DNA from: Lophium mytilinum
Lineage: Eukaryota
DNA length: 64,000 nucleotides
Assembly: GCA_010093605.1 (NCBI GenBank)
Contig: MU004193.1
Span: forward strand, 248,001-312,000
Reading direction: 5' to 3'
This document shows positions 1,162 to 64,000 of this stretch, one piece after another. Positions within the stretch are counted from its first letter, which is position 1. Each line of letters opens with the position of its first letter. The notes beneath the pieces are model-generated. The model did no database searches and was not told the origin of the DNA. It was given only the letters and a program-made list of their open reading frames with translations. Made by a program: the position numbers and the translations under genes.

Positions 1162-4100
1162 TCAAGACCCAGCTTGCCGATTCCAGCTCATACCCACTGC
1201 TTCAACTCTCGCCTTAACCTCCTCGCCTAACCTCACGCCCACCATCCTCACAACCTCATCCGTACTCCCAATCCACTTCTCTACCATCGCCCTCGTCTTC
1301 TCAACAGCCTCTTTATCACCCACCTTCCACCCCGGAACCGCCCTAATCAATTCATCCGCCAACTCAACCCTCAGATACCCCGCCACATCCACCTCTTTCA
1401 CATCAACATCTCCAACCGCCCACGCAACCCGCAGCCTATACTCCCCCGGACACAACAGCACCGCATCCTTCACTTTCTTGAAATCCTCATGATACCGCCT
1501 AGGGTGGGCGGTGGGGTGGGCGGGCGCAACCTCCCCAATAAACCCCACAACCCCCTCCGCAAACACCCGACACTTCTCCCCCTCCTCCTCGGGGGTGGGT
1601 GGCGTCGCCAGCAAACACGGATACGGCAGTAGTACCAGCCTCAGCTCCAGCGTCCCAGGTAGGTATGCAGGCACGCGCCGCGGATCTCGCTGCCACTCCT
1701 CCGTGCGTAGGCTATCGATATACGCAACCAGCTGCTCGATCAGCGGTCGCACGTTCGCCATCCACGCGCGCTTCCCGGCTTCGTTGGCGGTGGTTAGCGG
1801 GCGCAGGTCCGGCTCTAACGCCTTGGTGAATTTGCGGAACAGGCGGAAGTGCGGGTCGGGGTTAGGGAGCTGGAGGACTGCTTTTGCCTGCGCGATTAAC
1901 ATTTCCTGGATATCCGCGAGCGCGATGCCCTGATCAGCAGGGAGTTCGGTCGGCCGCCAGGGGCGAGTGAGGAGGGGGATGAGCTGGACATGCTGGAACA
2001 TCCACATCTTCGGCGGCGTGTTGAAGAAGTGGAGGAAGTTTGCATTCTGGCTGCTCTGCTGCTCGTACTCGTCGGCGGGGAGGGCGAGGATTTTCTGGCG
2101 CAGTGCGGTGTGTGCGGGGGGCGGGTTGATGTTTAGGAGGACGAAGGCGTGGTAGAGATCTAGATACTTCTTCGGCGTCCAGGATGGGTGAGTCTCGATG
2201 ATGCGCAGGGCGCCGGGGCGGAAGGGGATGCTGGGCAGGGCGGATGGGGAGAGGGGGGAGGAGTGCTGCGCGAGGTAGATGGCGGTCCAGCGGGAGAGGT
2301 TGCGGCGCGAGGCGTCGATGGTGGGGAGGAGGATGCTGGTGAAGATTTGGTGGCGCCAGAAGGCGCTGTGGGTGGTGTTGGATGTGAAGGATGTTATGGC
2401 GGCGAAAATGGGGGGCCAGGTTCGGAAGTTGCCTTCGTTGTAGACTTCGGGGGCGGTTTGGGTAGATTCAGCTAGCTGCCACTCAGTTTCGGTTAGTGGA
2501 CGCCGTTCGTTGAGGCTGCCGGCGATGGGTATGGTGGCTTCGAGGGACTTGAGGAGTTGCGATGCTAGTGGGTTAGAGATGTCCTCGAGGCATTGGAGAA
2601 GCAGGTTCAGCATTGCAGTGATGACAGCGACGCGGATGTCTAGATGGGTGGACTTCTGAAAGATGTCGACGAGCACGTCAACGGTGATGGGCTTCGCGAC
2701 GAAATCTGCCCCGTCGAGGAGTTGAGCGAGGTATTTCACGGTCGTGATTTTGACGAGGGGTTTTGGGGGGGTGGTGGCGGCGTTTTCAGCGCTCTTGGGG
2801 GGAGGGAGTTGTGATTGAGCTTTTAGTTTGGCGATGATGGCGGATGAGAAGCCTTGTATTGTTTCTCGAGCTAAACGAGCTGGTAGGCGGCATAGAAAAG
2901 TCTTTGATAGCCATTGCCGATGCCACGAGCTGGCGTCGGGATTCTCTATAATACTTTGCGTGGCGAGAGATGATGCGAGCTGTGGGCGATCGCTTTTTCC
3001 TAGGAGAGTGATGAGACTATACGCGATGCGCTCAGCTTCCACTGGGTCCGCTGGGCTGTTGGATAGAGCTTTCAAGGCAGCTTTGGTCAATGATTGAAGC
3101 AGGCTTGGTGGTACTGAAGCGATATGCCGTGCCAAGATACTTCTCGCATCCTTCTCTTTCACATCTAGGTCGAGGAGAAAGTCCTCGTCGAGAAAAAGAG
3201 ACGGGTATCTGATGTCGGACGAGGAAGGAAACGGAGCGGAAAGGAGCCTAGATGGTCCTTTAATCTTGCTGTCCAGAAGTAGCAGTGCAGCAGCAATTTG
3301 GGCTTCCCGAATCTCCGGTGAAGGCTGCACTTGCGTCTGCCAGAGATGCCCATCAGTTGAGTACGTTACCTCCGGAAACATCCATTGGCGAACAGCCTTT
3401 TTTTCCGCGATAGCAATGCCATACTCCGGGATTTTCATGGGCCTGAACGGTTTATGAAGGTCTGAGTGATTCCGATTATTTTCTACAACCGAGCAGTCTA
3501 GTCTCGTCGGCGGAAGGTTTCGAGCAGGTATCGTTGGTCGCTGAGGTTTGAGAGGATTCCACTCTACGGACTCTGAAGCATCTATGTCTTTTGGAAGCGG
3601 TTGATAATCCTCGGTAGAACACTGGCTGTAGTCGAAGCTAGCGAATCGCCGTGGAGGTAATCCTTTCTCTCCTAGAGTTTTGATAAATTTAGGATACCAA
3701 TACTCTTCTGCTTCTACCCCCGACAGTCGCCCAGAGCTCAAAGGACCTACGGCATGTGTCCACGCAAGTGTGATCCGATTGTCTCTTTCGTCGCCGTCGC
3801 ATGATGACGGGATGTAGATTGCCAGAGCAGCACAATAATCATCGATGAACGATCCTACGGCAAGCCTTGTCTCTTCATCCTTAGGTAATGGCGCAAGGGC
3901 TTCTTCTGGATCCTGGAACACGATAGCACTAGCGCGAGATGCCATATATGGAGTCACCAGCTCGGGAGGAAACCCTCTCATCTCCCAAGGATCAGTAAGG
4001 AATTGGATACCCAGACCTTGGGGCCATGGTGAGGATAGAGATGCTGTAGCAGGAACCACAGTAGGTCGATATGTGCGCCATACTTCATTTCGAGCCTTAG

Positions 4101-6517
4101 CAAGGTTATCAAAGAAGCGGTAGGTGGCAGGTGCACCATCGTCGATGGTGTAAGGTCCATCGAAGCTGGTGGTCCTTAAAGGTGCGTATGGATGCCTGAA
4201 GCCCAACTTGTCGTTCTCGCTTTTAATGGCCTCCTTCTCAACTTTGATAATAAGTTCTAGCGAGTCTTCCCAGAGAACTGCATATGTGGCGTCGTCGGAA
4301 AGATTGAGGGCTTTCTGAACTTCCTTTGATCGCTCGACGCGACGGAGAGTGACCTCTCTGAAAAGATCTAACGGCGCGGTCCAGTCGAATCTTTGAAAAG
4401 AAGGCTCTTTCAAGGCCATACATGCCGTCTCGAAGACCTGGTAGATGACCTGATTTGCTTTGACTATTCTTGAGCGCAAGCTGTCTTTGTCTAAATTACC
4501 GGGTATGAAGGATGGGATACCCGAGAGAAGGCTAATGCTTTCAGTAGTGTTCAACTCCGAACTGTCATCACTATTACTGTACAGTTGCTTGGAAACGAGC
4601 TAGAAGATAGTTAGCCTAGTCTGTAGGAAGATAGCTCGCGGGGCATGGAAAGATGGCACACTCAACCCGCATTCTGCGTTCTATACACCTGGCTGCCGCT
4701 GTTCGGGGTGCTTCAACGCATTTTTAGAAGGAAGAGATATCTTTGGACGATCTGGAAACATGTTGAAGCACTCCAAGCAGTGGCTGACAGATGCGCAAAA
4801 GACAGATTTTGATGAATGTGCCACTTTTTCCATGTCCAGCGTAGATAGGTACGTCTTACAGGATCACGAATGTACCGGCGCGCCCATAACAGCGTTTCTT
4901 CGTAAAGGTCGAGCGAGCCACTAGCAATCGCGTAGCGAAGGGCTGAGTTCGCATAGAAAGCTCGGTCGGTCGGCTCACGACTGATGGCCGACTTCTTTCT
5001 TCGATCTTCGACAGCTGCGAATGTCAGTGCCGTTCCGGAGAACCTCGAGACAACGGACCTTTCTGTACACTGCGCAACCACTCTTCAGAGTCGACATTCT
5101 TTTCTAGTAGCAATAGTAACAACGATGCGTCGCCATACTTCATATCAATCACTGGAGTGTGACGCAGGATAGAGCCACCTTCTCCCAGTGAAAGAAATTT
5201 CTCTTCCGGTTTGGCCTTGCGTAGGCGACGAAGGAAAGATATCGCATCTTGGCGGTCTAACGAGAAGAATAAGCCGGGTGGGCACCTTGTTATAGGAACA
5301 CCTCTCAAGTCCTCGATGCTGTTGATGTCGCCACTATTCTCGTCTTGAGCCAGGAAACAAGACCGGAGTAGTTTGTAACGGAGCGATTTTTGATCTTCAC
5401 GGACAAGTGCGCGAAAAAGACCCTTGTAGTTCGCGATGGAGCTTCTGGAGCCTTTCAGCGCGAGTCGCAAAAGCTTCAATAGTTGATCGTGGAAAGTCGG
5501 CTCCTCGTTTGACCAACATCGAACGACGTAATAAACAAAGTCGCGGTCTAAGGCAACTTCACTAGCTACACTCGGGTGCAACTCGATGTATGCCAGACTG
5601 AGGTCCACAATTTCTCTGATTCGATCCCACTCGTTCGTGGGCCTGAACTTTCGGTATGCTCGACGGATGAGCGGCTCGACGAGCTCTCCTATGAATGTAT
5701 TCTTGGGTATAGTTGCTTTCTCGGACTTGACGAGCTGGCGGAGAAGATTTAGAGAGAACAACATGGATTCGGAGAAGCCGGAGACTTGGCTCGAGCGCGG
5801 TGGTGAGCGTCGGAGGAGACTAGGAAGACAAGAGATACTTGTGCTTCTATCTTTGCTTGTAGAGAGAACCTCTTCGACGCAAATTTTTCTGAACAATTCC
5901 GGATGGTACTTGACAAACAATGTCATGTGATGATCCAAGGAAGAATCCCTCCAAAGCTGGTCTAGGGTCGTGGCTGAACATCCTGGAAGAAGGTCTTCGG
6001 CATATTTGCTGAGAGGGCGGTCGTCCAAAGCTTCTTGGGGTTTGGAGTCTTGGCTACTTTTAAGAAGATCAGGATTAAGGGATCGAACTACCTGGGTGAT
6101 CTTTTCTCGCTTTTCTTCAAAGTCCACGCCCGAACCGCATTTCCCGACAGTTTGGGTGAGATAACGAACATCTGTAACGGAGAATTGGCTAAGTAGAGAC
6201 ACAAGTCCGGATATCTGTCCAACCCCGTCCCATGTTTCTCTCCATTGTGTTCCTCGTAACTCTTTTCCTAGTTGCCTGATTGCTTGTCCCCGCACTAGCG
6301 CAGAGAATTCCTGTTTCAGAGCTGCTAGAAGTGTGCGGGGAGTTTTTCGAATGCTGAGCCAGATTTTGAAAACAGCAGGAGAGATTGATTCATTTTCCAC
6401 ACTTTCAAGTAGGTGGGTTGAAATCAGGTCCTCTGTTGTCTTAGTCAGAGCATCGAGAAGATGGCGAGCGACGGTTGATGGAGAGCGGTTTCGTAAAACG
6501 CGATTATCGACAGACAT
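1162..6517 (-). CDS. Large (~1683 aa) hypothetical, probably alpha-helical protein; 3 exons (6517-5059, 5014-4860, 4599-1162)
   Basis: Three ORFs (5024-6517, 4713-5081, 1162-4554) join in frame through two introns: 5058-5015 (GTCCGT..CTGAC..CAG) and 4859-4600 (GTAAGA..CTAAC..TAG). Spliced length is 5052 nt, a multiple of 3. No catalytic motif recognised. Confidence 0.85.
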
Positions 6518-18232: not shown

Positions 18233-19071
18233 CTAGCCCCACGTAGTGCCCTGGGCTATTTTCCACCACCAAATCTCTTTTAAAGATTCCGCATTGGACC
18301 AGTCTTTACCCACGAAGACCTTTTGATTGCGCTCTTCGAAGCCCTTCCGAACCCAGTCCAGCAGTGCCTCAAACGTTGGATGCCGAAACTGGAGATTCCG
18401 CCCGTCACTCAAGGTGAAGTGCTCCAGCTTATTGCATTCAAACAGCCCTTCCAAGTGGTGCCTCGCGGCGAACTGCTCTATAGGAAGCCCATGCAGTACA
18501 TTGCCTTCAACGATATCATTGAAGATCTGCAAATCAATGCTTTTGAGGTTGCGGCACTTCTTCATGAATTCGATATCTTCGTTCATTCCACTCGCATGTT
18601 TCCAGCCGTTGACATCGTCCCCGTTGGCAGATTCAAGACGGCGAACGCTGGTAACACCAGCGTTACCTGGATACCAGCCAGCCACTACTCCGCTGCTTTC
18701 CGGCATTCAGATGTCAGTGAAACTAGTGTTTTGTTTCGGATCAAGTAGGGCATTGTCTCTTGCCGCAGTTGGCGGTTTGTACGACACAGTGGAGGCGTGG
18801 CAACGGGAGCAATGTAAGCGGGTCGTAGATATAGGTAATTGAAAATCATCTTCTTATCTTCTTCGCAGAAGGCACAGTCGTATATCATGTCCCTTAGCTC
18901 GCGTGGGAGGGCTATCAGTGGGAACTAAAGAACAGCTGTTAGCGAGCTGACGTATTGAAGGAGGGGCCGGCTTTATCTCACTGCTGTACTAGACTTCTTG
19001 CACGACTAGATGCCATCTTCGATGATTGCATTCTCAGGCGGCGGTGCAGTGTAGGTCTTCGTGGGCGCCAT
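18233..19071 (-). pseudogene. F-box/2EXR-like paralog 2, pseudogene
   Basis: ATG 19071, phase-0 intron 18981-18925, FPLIALPRELRDMIY..PLCRTNRQLRQETMPY. In-frame TAG at 19008-19006 and 18687-18685, plus a frameshift near 18670 into ORF 18233-18706. Confidence 0.8.
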
Positions 19072-20404
19072 GGTCGTGGACTCTGGAGTTTTAATAGGGG
19101 TTGGGATTGCTTTTAGAGGACACGTTTGGAGGTGTGGTGTGCAGGTGTGGTGTATACTGCAGAGAAGCGTCAGGCGTCGGGTTTCGAATGAATCTTATGA
19201 AGGAAGAGGAACGATCTCGGCGCTATGCAACTAAGACAACGCCAATCCTGCCCGCAATAAGCCGATGGTCATTAGCGGCAAGGTAATTAGGCTGTGTTGA
19301 ATTCATACATAACAAGGCATTCAAAGGCTTCAAGCTAGAACACGCAGTGAATAATATAGGTTTCGGTGGCATAAGCATAGATACCGGCTGCAGCTAGCTA
19401 TGATTGTACTAGATGAGGTAGTTCAAGATGTTCTTGAGATTTCAGATTCAAGGCAGACTTCTAGCTAACGCACTCGAAGTGAACCTTGATCCTTCCACGT
19501 GCTCTCTTTACCGCTGCTCAAGGCAGATCTACACATGACATGGACGTTGCAAGACAGCCTAAGACATTGTCCACGGTTATTTCATGCATGAGCGCAGAGT
19601 TACCGTGCCGCAGAAGATTAGCAAGGTCACCCCTGGGAGATGATCGCAGACATAGGGTATATCTGTGAAACCCGTGATTTACCTAAGCAAGTACTCCTCT
19701 CTCAGACCTCTCATAATCCCTCTGCATTCCATCAGCATTAAAGACCCGTACTCAGATCTGTCAAGAAGTTTCATGACCCCGGTCGATCTGCCCAAGAACA
19801 TCATACCAATTTCATAGCTTCTTAGCGAAGCGCCGGAGCCAGGTTGTGGGACCATAGATGTAGCAGTCTTCATACCACAACACGAGATCAGCCGAAACCT
19901 TTCTGCCCCGCTTCTCAAATCCATCTCTGATCCATTCTCTTAAGGCTTTTGGTGTTTCCTTGTCGACGTCGCAATACTGCATGGGCATTTCGATATGCTC
20001 AAGCTTTTTGCATTTGAAAATCTCTTCTAGACGGTACTCCTCAATAAGCTCTTCCATCGTTGGACCCTGGGACCAATCAAGGCTTGAGACCAGAAAACCG
20101 AAATCGAGGCCGAGACAGACGTATGTAAGTCCTGAGCATCTCTTCATCAGCTCAATAACCTCATTGTGCCCGTTTGCGTTCATCCAGCGATCGTCGTGCG
20201 TATGGATGCTGTCAAAATGAAGACGACGAACGTCTTTCAAGCCAACTTCTGAGGGTATCGCATCGAGACAATCTTCCAGGCCCTTCATATCTTCCACTGC
20301 TCTGATCATGACAACATTGTCTCGGACGAGACATGCAAGGGTTTCTTCCCGCAGTTGACGGTTGGTATGGCAAAGCGCTGGGATCAAAGATTCCCCAGGA
20401 AGAA

Positions 20405-20545
20405 TGTCAGGGAGTAGCGGTGAGGGCTACGGCAGGCACGTGTATATAGCCTCACCTTCCTCCAGACCTCTTCTCTCCAACAACATTAATCATCATTCAT
20501 CTAATACATCACGTACAACGTCTACTTCTCTCCTGTTACGTGACA
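20405..20545 (+). repeat. 5' LTR of the TRIM
   Basis: Identical to 21202-21342 except for two CpA-to-TpA differences. Confidence 0.95.
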
Positions 20546-20636
20546 GTTGGTAGCTGAGCCGGTTCTTTCCATCTCTTTCTTATTACTCCTCGGAGTTGTT
20601 ACCTACCCTTACCACCCTTACCGAGAGCAGCTCCTT

Positions 20637-20970
20637 TATAGTGCAAGCTACGAGCCAATCCTAACGGACATTATTCCCGTACAGTGCAAGCCAAGAGCTA
20701 ATCCTAATGGACGATAAGAACGATCTCTATACAGTGCACGCCATGGCTAATCCTAACGGACGAACCTATAGACATCCCGCTGTATAGTGCACGCTACCTA
20801 CAAGCCAATCCTAACGGGACTGGGACCACACGCTGTACGCCAATTCTAACAGGACTTCATGAAACCTGTACAGTGCAAGCTACGAGCCACCATCCCGCCG
20901 TCGAGCAGCAGCGCTAGTTTTATCTGAGCCCTCCGTACAGTGCATAGCCACGAGCCAATCCTAGCAGGAC
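20637..20970 (+). repeat. Array of ~7 imperfect ~33-bp repeats (TACAGTGCAAGCYACGAGCCAATCCTAACGGAC) separated by unique spacers
   Basis: Units start at about 20637, 20680, 20730, 20783, 20836 (partial), 20869 (partial) and 20936. Confidence 0.85.
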
Positions 20971-20987
20971 GTCTGCCTTATTTGGTT

Positions 20988-21071
20988 GGTCGATCGGTAA
21001 CGAACAACTCCTACATCACCAACACCTTCGGTCGATTGGTAACGAACAACTCCTACATCACCAATACCTCC
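20988..21071 (+). repeat. 42-bp tandem duplication inside the TRIM
   Basis: ggtcgatcggtaacgaacaactcctacatcaccaacaccttc followed by ggtcgattggtaacgaacaactcctacatcaccaatacctcc. Confidence 0.9.
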
Positions 21072-21201
21072 CACAGCGAATTCCTCTATTACCATTCCAC
21101 CAGCACACCATGTACGCCTTGTCCAGCTTGTACAGCGCTTTCACTGCTTTTGTTTTGATGGGCAGCAGACGGGGACGCCTGCTATTCTTTGGGGCGGCAA
21201 C

Positions 21202-21342
21202 TGTCAGGGAGTAGCGGTGAGGGCTACGGCAGGCACGTGTATATAGCCTCACCTTCCTCCAGACCTCTTCTCTCCAACAACATCAATCATCATTCATCCA
21301 ATACATCACGTACAACGTCTACTTCTCTCCTGTTACGTGACA
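21202..21342 (+). repeat. 3' LTR of the TRIM
   Basis: Direct repeat of 20405-20545. Confidence 0.95.
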
Positions 21343-22379
21343 AAGAATGTCGTCCTTCATCTCTGGTGATGAGTAATAGTCCCAATGCCACTCGTCAGGA
21401 AGAGCATAGCTATATATCTTATCCCGGAGTTCACGAGGAAGTGCAAGCAGTGGAAACTATTGTTACATCATTTTGTTAGCTAGATCATACACTGGTGTGG
21501 CTTTTGGTTATGTTTACCTTGTATTCAAGATGTTGCTGAAGTTCGACGCCGTATGTTGTATATTCATTGCCTGTCTTCAAGACAGTGGCCCATGACGGTA
21601 GGGTCTTGAGCGGCATCCTGGCACCTAGTGAGGGAGGTAGTGGGTAGTGGGTGCCAACGGAAGGATGTGGGTCTAAAGAAGCTTAAGGGATGTGGAAGCT
21701 GGATGGTTTATATATTACAGTGAGCTGACGTAGTCGGGAAATTGGTACTCTATGTAATTTAGACACGAGAAACTTTAGGCAACAGCGTAGCCTAACGTGC
21801 GAGCTAGCTAGCGTATTATATCCGTATAATTCACTGTTAAATATTTCTGGAATATCCGGCCAACACTACTCTTCCTCTGTAGCTACTCTGCTAAATGCCG
21901 GCCTTAGCGTCTAATTTTAGGTGGAAGACGAGCTAATATATAGGAATGCACCCAAGTTTGCTACCGCATTAATTACTATAAGTGATTGCCATCATCCAAC
22001 ATATTCCACCGTAGTGCACACCCCTTCATTGATTTTCTTAGCGTATATCTATGACTGAGGCTAAGTCATTGATTCTTGCAAATCCACTGCGCCGCCACTA
22101 CTTTTAGTGCTCTTATACATTTTTAGAGATTTGAAGTGTTGCAAAGCCCAGTCAAAGACCTAGTTTCCTTCATTTGGCTCTGCAAGCTTACTAGTTGGCT
22201 CACTTGGAAGTTCTCACCATCTAGAGAACGCACTAGCCACCTTTTAGCAACGGCAAACAAACGTACACAAATCAGTACCGTGTCATTGTAAGACCCTTTG
22301 CTCTCTTTTAGACCAGATGCTGCACTAGTTTCCTAGGAAGTCGGTCACTCGCCGCTCGGACTGCTACCTAAATCCTCAC

Positions 22380-61399: not shown

Positions 61400-64000
61400 T
61401 GCTCTTTAACGTCGCCTCGTGGAACTAGTAATAAATGTTAAAAGGAATACTAAGTTAATTAATTAACCTAGGTAGAGGGGGAATAGGGCTATCTATATAT
61501 CTAACCCTAAGCCTAATTTCTCTTATATTAGAATACTAGTTAGCCTAAGCTAACTACTTCTAATACTTCTATATAATAATATAAGAGAATATAAAGATAT
61601 CTAGATATAGCTAAGAAGCTTCTATAGATAAGAAACCCTATTCTATATCTCTATCTACCTAGTAATTCCCTTTAATAGTACGGCGTACAGCTAGCTATAT
61701 TACTTCCTCTTATAATATATTTACCTTCTAATAGTATACCTTCTTCTCTATAGAAAGATCTATATTCTTATCTTTAGCCTCTTAAATAACTACTCCCTCT
61801 ACCTTATTTTAAGCCTTCTAATATATAGTTTAAAATTTATATCTAGGTTTAGATAGTATAAAGAAGATTATTCTAATAGAATTCTTTTTAACTTCTAGGT
61901 ACTTATAGTAATAGAAAAACTCTATATTCTTTATAGTCTAAAATATCTAGCAGGATTCTATAAAAGAGTTAGAAGAAATAGAGATAGAATTATTAGTATT
62001 ATTAAGTATATATCTATAAAAATAGATATAGAAAAAAACTAGAATAGAAGATTAATATTCTCTTCTCTTCTAAATCCTCTTAATCTTAGTATAGAGAATA
62101 TATATAGGCCTTACTATTTTCTTAGAAACTAGAGATATATATTTTTCTAAGCTAGAAGTAAAGGTCTAAGAAGAATTAACTAAGTAGAAGAAGATAGTCT
62201 AGGTTCTAATACTAATATATCTAGTATAGGGAGGGGAATCTAGATAATAAGAACTAGAAGAAGGTAGAGAAGGTAGAGAAGAACTAGAAGTAGGGGAAGA
62301 TATAGAAGTAGAAGAGGTAGTAGAAAAAGAGTAAAAAGAAGCTCTAAAAAGAAATAGAAAAGAAAAGAAAAAAAATAAAACTTTAGAAATAATAATAAAA
62401 GATAAATTAGATTAAACTAGAACTAGAGTAGAAACCTTATCTTTAGAACTAGATTTCTTAGAAAGTTCTTATACTTCCCTTCTTCTAAAAGTATTAGGTC
62501 TAGTTTTAATCTTAGAAGAATCTAAAGAAAGAGTAGCTTTCTAAGAAGATAGAGCTTTAGATAATCTAGAAGTATTATAAGATTTATATTATATCTATCT
62601 TCTATTACTATAGGCCTAGAGATAGTTAAGAAGACTCTAATTATAGTTAGAAGTAGGCTTATAATTAGGTAAAATATTAAAAGGGAAAGAAAGAGCTAGT
62701 GCTAGAGGAGTTAATATAGCTATAGTAAAAAAGGTAGAAATAATTAGTATAGCTAGAGAGTTATCTAGAAGGTCTAGAAGGCTATTAGAAATAGTAGGGC
62801 TTAGAGAAGTAGGTAATAGTAGCGGAAAATTATCTAAAGTAGGCTAAGAAGAGAAGTAAAGAAACTCTTAAGGAGTCTATATTAGAGAGCTTAGTAGTAC
62901 TAATATTTTAGTATACTTTTTATTAAGATTAGTTAAAGATTAAAAGAGTTATAATTTTTTAAAAGTTAGAAAAATTTAACTTAGTAGTTTTAGGTGCTAA
63001 ATTTAGATTCTAGTGCGACTTTAAGAATTTAGAGAAGTAGAAATTATTAAGTAGTAGAAGTTCTAATATACCTAGCACTTAGTTATTAATAGATAGTATC
63101 TTAGTATACTTAGTAGAAATTTTCTTAATAAAAATTTATATATAGAAAATATAATTCTAAGACTAATTTTTAGTAGCTTAGTATAAATTATATAGAGAAG
63201 TTAAATATTACTCTAATTAGGCTAAGAATTTAAACATGCATAGCTAGAGTATTAACTTTCCCCCTTATCTAGAGAGAAAGTTTATTTAAGTCCTAGAGCT
63301 TATCTAAAGAGTAAGAAATAGTTCTTTAAAAGTGCCTTTATAAGACTATTAGCTACCTATTAGTTAGTTAGAATAAATTTAAGGTCTATAGTATTATTAG
63401 CAACTTTTTTCTAAATATAGTAGTATTAGATAGTAATATATTTTAACCTAGAGTAGAACTATAGGTTCTTTACTAGTGTAATAGCTTCTTAGTTATTACT
63501 ATAGATAATAGTAGCTGCTAGAACTTCTTCTATAGCTAGTAATTTTTAGAGAAGAGAGCGTAGCTATATAGCTTTCTTAGTAGCTTAAGTTTCTTTTATA
63601 TATTCTACTTTATATAAAGAGAGAGTAATAACGGTTTACTATTTAGATAACTAACTAATAACTCTACTTCTAATACTAAAAATATATCTAGCTATAGACT
63701 AATATATAGCTTAATTACCGGCCTAATTAGAATTAGTATATTTAATAAGTAGCTAAAGTAGTCCCTTATATATAAGCTTAAGGTTAAGAGTCCCCCTTAG
63801 ATAGTATATAATATATTTTATAGCTTTAATATATACTATAGTAGGGTTTATAAGGTATTAGCTATATATAAATACTAAAAATATAATATTAGATTAAGTT
63901 CTAAGTATAGTATATATAAGAAAGCTAATTACTTTTATATACTAGAATTAATTAGCTTCTAATATAGTATAGCCGTCTTTAGCTAGGTCTATATTACCGG
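61400..64000. mobile_element. Heavily RIP-mutated AT-rich repeat/transposon relic, running off the window
   Basis: Very high TpA (TAG/CTA/TAA), almost no CpA/TpG, no ORFs in the track. Element class not identifiable by eye. Confidence 0.85.

Follow-up and report, generated by a model that had tools for sequence, protein, structure and literature searches.

Miniature LTR retrotransposons (TRIMs) are defined, in the excerpted text of PMC6934838, as elements shorter than ~1000 bp that carry terminal direct repeats of 100-250 bp, run from a tRNA-complementary primer-binding site (PBS) to a polypurine tract, and contain neither gag nor pol. They occur in dothideomycetes (PMC4112212, in excerpt), and both this and the presence of tandem repeats inside LTR retrotransposons are already known. 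Tandem arrangements, in the excerpted TRIM literature, consist of whole LTR-internal-LTR units and not of arrays of boxes and linkers.

Macas et al. in 2009 reportedly described stretches of hypervariable tandem repeats within the 3' UTR of Tat/Ogre elements of plants. According to excerpts of one account of Tat/Ogre LTR retrotransposons, the sequence and length of the monomers vary between copies, and the regions are ascribed to illegitimate recombination or to abnormal strand transfer between co-packaged RNAs (PMC7004042). The same excerpts present Tat/Ogre elements as autonomous plant Ty3/gypsy retrotransposons with ordinary tandem monomers after the coding region. A further relevant system is VL30, a non-coding rodent element with a small dimerisation/packaging signal 3' of the 5' LTR and with motifs bound by PSF, a protein of the host (PMC4859993, in excerpt).

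Here we describe an array of short boxes at 20637-20970 of a 64-kb stretch of DNA from Lophium mytilinum (the window, to which all positions refer), housed within a TRIM. Like known TRIMs, the host element is shorter than 1000 bp and non-coding, lies within a gene, has short terminal direct repeats, a PBS-like start and a purine-tract end, and is flanked by a 5-bp target duplication. Unlike them, it has an internal domain of 656 nt, which is long for a TRIM and consists mostly of local duplications. With Tat/Ogre elements, as excerpted, it shares a short repeat array inside an LTR retrotransposon, variation between copies and a proposed origin by strand transfer, but here a TRIM of a fungus is the carrier, the 5' leader is where the array begins, and nothing except a 33-nt box has been kept. 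VL30 is likewise an LTR element without proteins, and its cis-acting RNA sites after the 5' LTR may serve, by analogy, as a model for how the boxes could act; the excerpted description, however, gives VL30 no multiplied array of boxes as its signal, and no sequence likeness is claimed. Conserved repeats alternating with unrelated short linkers are also a hallmark of CRISPR arrays, from which the locus differs in that it lies in the genome of a eukaryote, its repeats are imperfect and contain indels, its linkers range from 10 to 46 nt without a set length, and it lacks a hairpin and associated genes. In a narrow full-text literature search, extending to excerpts of papers, no TRIM was described as containing an array of boxes and unique linkers.

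Results

The host element

The element at 20405-21342 is a TRIM of 938 bp with a non-coding internal domain of 656 nt. Its 5' LTR (20405-20545, + strand; 141 nt, TG...CA, with TATATA at 20443-20448) is identical at 139 of 141 positions to the 3' LTR (21202-21342, + strand, 141 nt), located by repeat comparison. Copies of AAGAA, read from the sequence at 20400-20404 and 21343-21347, form the target-site duplication. Also legible in the sequence are the PBS-like TGGTAGCTGAGCCGG, which starts with TGG 2 nt after the 5' LTR (20548-20562, + strand), and a purine-rich, PPT-like tract, GGGGCGGCAA, 1 nt before the 3' LTR (21191-21200, + strand; 8 of 10 letters purines). Since the PBS-like and purine-tract signals are absent in the opposite orientation, the element reads on the + strand.

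The total length, the 141-nt repeats, the terminal purine tract, the AAGAA duplication and the lack of gag/pol domains all agree with the definition of a TRIM. The initial annotation had named a TRIM as host of the array, and the LTRs, the 5-bp target duplication, the PBS-like start and the purine tract are indeed all present. It had also seen no accompanying protein gene, which held when the seven internal ORFs (43-88 aa) were searched against Pfam at E up to 1 and matched no family. A protein look-up with the 69-aa ORF that runs across the array returned no candidate, and ARAGORN found no tRNA genes in the 64-kb window.

Local duplications make up most of the internal domain. Besides the array, Tandem Repeats Finder reports three small tandem repeats in its 656 nt, as against three in the ~5 kb scanned outside the element. 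Its calls on the + strand include a small tandem repeat (9 nt x 2.5) at 20599-20622 and a duplication with two 42-nt units, 95% alike, at 20988-21069. Across 20988-21071 the 42-nt repeats differ at three positions, all C/T transitions. At the two positions where the LTRs differ, the 5' LTR has T and the 3' LTR has C, with A as the next letter.

The split gene and its surroundings

The TRIM is inserted, antisense and in frame, in a minus-strand 2EXR-like (F-box-like) gene of this dothideomycete fungus. The N-terminal part of the split gene (FPLLALPRELRD...; 21343-21456, minus strand) is identical at 15 of 22 positions to a neighbouring paralogue, and the remainder (19812-20404, minus strand) matches later parts of that paralogue with E values of 3e-8 and 2e-17. 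In the paralogue itself (18233-18924, minus strand) both halves lie in one gene, which has a weak 2EXR match in Pfam. As read from the sequence and its ORFs, ...KDDIL and PGESLIPALCHTNRQLR... come together in a single minus-strand frame once the TRIM and one of the AAGAA copies are excised. Judged by these reading frames, the second of two neighbouring 2EXR-like paralogues is knocked out by the TRIM.

A permease elsewhere in the window shares 94% identity with a Mytilinidion resinicola protein, which places the host among the dothideomycetes near that species. The GC content falls to 25.5% at 62001-64000, compared to 42-57% in the rest of the window, and this low-GC end may be a repeat region degraded by RIP. 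A purine/pyrimidine word search of the window for RIP-degraded relatives of the TRIM gave only short pyrimidine-run matches, and the low-GC end has no likeness to the TRIM.

Array architecture

Between 20637 and 20970 lie five full and two half copies of a bipartite box of ~33 nt, spanning 334 bp and all on the + strand. Box 1 (20637-20669) falls within a leader that is common to a second genomic variant, described below. Alignment of the copies places three more full boxes at 20680-20712 (box 2), 20730-20761 (box 3) and 20783-20820 (box 4, with 5 extra nt between its halves), and a fifth at 20936-20970 (box 7, with two 1-nt insertions). The half boxes, supported by both the alignment and a half-box search, are box 5 (20836-20855, second half only) and box 6 (20869-20889, first half only, followed by a 46-nt linker). 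In the aligned copies the box reads TAYAGTGCA, then 7-12 variable letters, then GCYAATCCTAAC-GGAC. Pairwise identity among the five full boxes is 82-94% (10 pairs), and the most constant letters, AGTGCA, AATCCTA and GGAC, lie outside CCAAT.

The locus had initially been described as about seven copies of a ~33-bp repeat containing AGCCAATC and CCTAAC. The array is real, but it comprises five full and two half copies and not seven full ones, and while both words occur, each is intact in only three of the seven copies: AGCCAATC is replaced by GCTAATC in two, and CCTAAC is unbroken in three. Among the six second-half boxes, four have CCAAT and two have CTAAT; CTAAC is intact in four of the six. 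Each CTAAC sits 20-31 nt 5' of the next TAYAG.

The half boxes are strongly clustered. At no more than one mismatch, the first half-box, TACAGTGCA, has 12 matches on both strands of the 64-kb window, six of them in the array; at no more than two mismatches, the second half-box, GCCAATCCTAAC, has 11, again with six in the array. Matches within the array are confined to the + strand, where by our own arithmetic ~0.07 and ~0.03 would be expected by chance in 334 bp, and the 6 and 5 matches elsewhere in the window are roughly the chance number.

The six linkers measure 10, 17, 21, 15, 13 and 46 nt. Their summed semi-global likeness score of 35, against a shuffle mean of 32.3, is reached by 151 of 500 shuffles; it is reached by 252 of 500 when the last 3 nt of each linker are removed, and the score in a purine/pyrimidine alphabet by 221 of 500. 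Summed local scores are equalled in 220 of 1000 shuffles. The sole local likeness among the linkers is CATCCCGC, found in linkers 3 and 6, a maximum reached by 37 of 1000 shuffles, and C-Y-G is the ending of all linkers but one. The common word and the shared ends are weak hints that the linkers may descend from a common sequence.

Tandem Repeats Finder, at a score of at least 30, does not report the array at 20637-20970, which fits its irregular period of 33-67 bp. An ordinary tandem repeat or minisatellite has head-to-tail units that can be aligned over their full length; here the units vary from 33 to 67 nt and the linkers score like shuffles. Because the half boxes cluster far beyond chance, the linkers are unrelated and Tandem Repeats Finder makes no call, we consider the array real and not a simple tandem repeat. 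These results confirm exactly all six linkers in the initial list, together with their description as unrelated, and we agree with the argument made there that simple tandem duplication cannot explain them. The alternative, that the spacers are decayed tandem units, is disfavoured by linkers that align no better than shuffled sequence.

Comparison within the family

Contigs were mapped on 20000-21750 from X1 and X2, two DNA runs that share a single sample of this organism (the sample may itself be the source of the window), and from a run of another organism (X3). The unique flanks have a depth of 111 in X1 and 157 in X2, whereas depth summed over the LTR bins reaches 2400-4300 from many variant contigs; contig depth does not equal copy number, but this sum over many variants indicates that relatives of the LTR are numerous.

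Two contigs cover 20551-20669, the stretch with the PBS, box 1 and the leader. The first shows no differences from the window (depth 94/155 in X1/X2); the second has 10 differences (depth 147.7/126.8), of which nine are T for C and one is A for G, the window copy always having the T or A. Both contigs stop exactly at the last letter of box 1. From 20642 to 21177 there is a single 536-nt contig with no differences and a depth of 88.5/131.7, about that of the unique flanks, and no other X1/X2 contig covers 20708-21120, the stretch with copies 3-7, the 42-nt duplication and the sequence beyond. No joint from the variant leader contig to later parts of the window is listed among the mapped contigs. 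From this pattern, a second member of the family appears to share the leader and box 1 and then to continue differently, and the remainder of the array, like the 42-nt duplication, would be private to this TRIM copy, with the proviso that a relative sharing only the 33-nt boxes might escape mapping.

The array had been called cargo carried inside the TRIM. Box 1, however, lies in the PBS-proximal leader that is common to the second genomic variant, and the box is therefore native to the family and not cargo.

Contigs of the other organism (X3, a run guessed to be RNA) include LTR-like sequence on 20400-20468 and 21201-21343, at a summed depth of 1200-1800, so that the LTR family is not confined to one organism. 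One X3 contig has a 72-nt match to 21073-21144 with seven differences; the array is unmatched in this run. The recent differences across the element, in the LTRs, the 42-nt repeats and the sibling leader, are all C/T-type transitions, a pattern that resembles light RIP, or some comparable bias towards deamination, on this copy.

RNA structure and sequence searches

The consensus fold of the boxes is not conserved, with three pairs and -0.66 kcal/mol, which settles negatively the folding check of the repeat that had been proposed. Of 100 shuffles of the + strand array RNA, 96 fold better than the array itself (z = +1.69); z is +1.18 for the whole internal domain and -0.43 for the minus strand of the array. 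The array region of + strand TRIM RNA is thus predicted to be unusually unstructured. Rfam gave no matches at E up to 1 and one at E = 4, with 15 bits against a threshold of 59. Processing into small RNAs, as had been suggested for the array, finds no support here, given the missing conserved fold, the poor folding against shuffles and the absence of any meaningful Rfam match.

Several other candidates were rejected. Long-range pairing of 20592-20607 with 20996-21011 is unused in the minimum-energy fold, and a GUGCAC/UGUACA palindrome considered as a dimerisation site is found in only a few copies. Neither ARAGORN nor Rfam points to a tRNA-like or Pol III A/B-box origin. Derivation of the box from the PBS/leader, the LTR or the region after the array is likewise not favoured, as the local alignment sums are reached by 76-281 of 300 shuffles.

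A degenerate box pattern searched in metagenome contigs has 77 matching loci (~30 being our estimate of the chance number), each with a single match, no second box and no wider likeness to the TRIM. About 50 of the 77 share one conserved 27-nt word that fits the pattern, many of them in soil contigs; this word probably belongs to a conserved gene in some abundant lineage from soil and has no relation to the window. Five of the 77 loci were run against Rfam without a match. In viral contigs the box pattern has one single match, and linker 3, the one of the six linkers searched, has no exact match among 2.9 million contigs.

Discussion

We favour, at roughly even confidence, an explanation in which the array is the hypervariable, duplication-prone middle of a young TRIM's non-coding internal domain, with a box that is native to the leader and was multiplied in this copy. 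The bipartite box would belong to the family's 5' leader, 3' of the primer-binding site, and would have been multiplied to five full and two half copies in this one TRIM copy. Slippage or illegitimate template switching in the course of reverse transcription may have produced the copies, much as is proposed for Tat/Ogre elements. Boxes that are alike beside unrelated linkers are most simply accounted for by constraint on the box as a cis-acting site, and we infer, from one copy of the array, that the box could be a docking site on + strand TRIM RNA. It sits in the leader past the PBS, the region in which non-coding LTR elements such as VL30 have their packaging/dimerisation signal and host-protein motifs (PMC4859993, in excerpt), and the RNA of this region is predicted to be open. 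Its partner could be the Gag/nucleocapsid of the autonomous element or a host factor.

Not everything fits this explanation. Template switching or unequal recombination should copy linkers as well as boxes, yet no linker is duplicated, and the origin of the linkers is not explained by such a model. Conservation of the box by selection is likewise our inference from one array copy, and any constraint would be loose, as two of the six second-half boxes lack CCAAT and two of the copies are halves. The boxes may have a role in protein binding or packaging. It is tempting to speculate further that the 33-nt box is a multimerised docking site on an unstructured TRIM RNA, bound by Gag/nucleocapsid or a host RNA-binding protein, so that stacked leader signals would out-compete the helper for packaging and the linkers would be free filler; we hold this fuller version to be doubtful.

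The array might instead be a neutral by-product, a decaying, indel-ridden and functionless minisatellite in which the contrast between boxes and linkers stems from chance or mutational bias. We regard this as unlikely, though a serious contender: by contig mapping the array is private to one copy, two of its boxes are halves, the CCAAT and CTAAC words are often mutated, other small duplications occur in the same internal domain, and the word common to linkers 3 and 6 and the C-Y-G that ends five of the six linkers hint at an ancestral unit. Uniform decay, however, cannot yield boxes of 82-94% identity beside shuffle-like linkers of differing length, and the few recent differences in the rest of the element are without exception transitions. 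The boxes could also be constrained as DNA, as an enhancer made of transcription-factor sites, for example for the CCAAT-binding complex, that would boost the TRIM or neighbouring genes. Their clustering in a single orientation and the CCAAT in four of six second-half boxes would suit such a function. We nevertheless consider it improbable, given the CTAAT in the other two, the position of the most constant letters (AGTGCA, AATCCTA, GGAC) outside CCAAT, and the lack of enrichment of either half-box elsewhere in the 64-kb window, where the 6 and 5 outside matches are close to chance.

Very little probability attaches to capture of host sequence, in which template switching would have brought part of a cellular transcript, or of another box array, into the TRIM as true cargo. 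Transduction of host genes has been described for TRIMs (PMC6934838, in excerpt), and the central 20670-21120 is unlike any other genome contig at an identity of at least 80%; the same comparison offers no donor locus among the contigs, and box 1 belongs to the leader common to the second family variant. Least credible, to the point of being almost negligible, is an RNA-processing array, whether as repeat-flanked small RNAs of a CRISPR-like or phased-siRNA-like kind or as CTAAC...YAG units acting as serial branch-point and 3' splice-site signals. The repeat-linker layout is what such an array would have, and CTAAC lies 20-31 nt 5' of the next TAYAG, a CTAAC-to-YAG spacing typical of fungal introns. 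Against this, there is no conserved hairpin and no stable fold, the lone Rfam match (E = 4) scores 15 bits where the threshold is 59, the linkers of 10-21 nt are not uniform in length, linker 3 is without an exact match in the 2.9 million viral contigs, and CTAAC is intact in only four of six second-half boxes. By the features of a CRISPR-like locus, repeats of only 82-94% identity, linkers of 10-46 nt, an element with no domain-bearing ORF and no viral match for linker 3 (one of six) mark the array as something else; it is not a CRISPR-like guide array, nor a eukaryotic CRISPR analogue.

The explanation that we favour, a leader box multiplied in the variable middle of a young TRIM, has different consequences depending on whether the boxes work. 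Packaging signals of fungal LTR elements are poorly defined. If the boxes are functional docking sites, the array would provide a handle on these signals, and it would be a compact natural example of a protein-less retrotransposon tuning its own cis signals. If they are functionless, the array would be another repeat-prone variable core, of the sort already described for LTR retrotransposons of plants, this time carried by a fungal TRIM that knocked out a gene.
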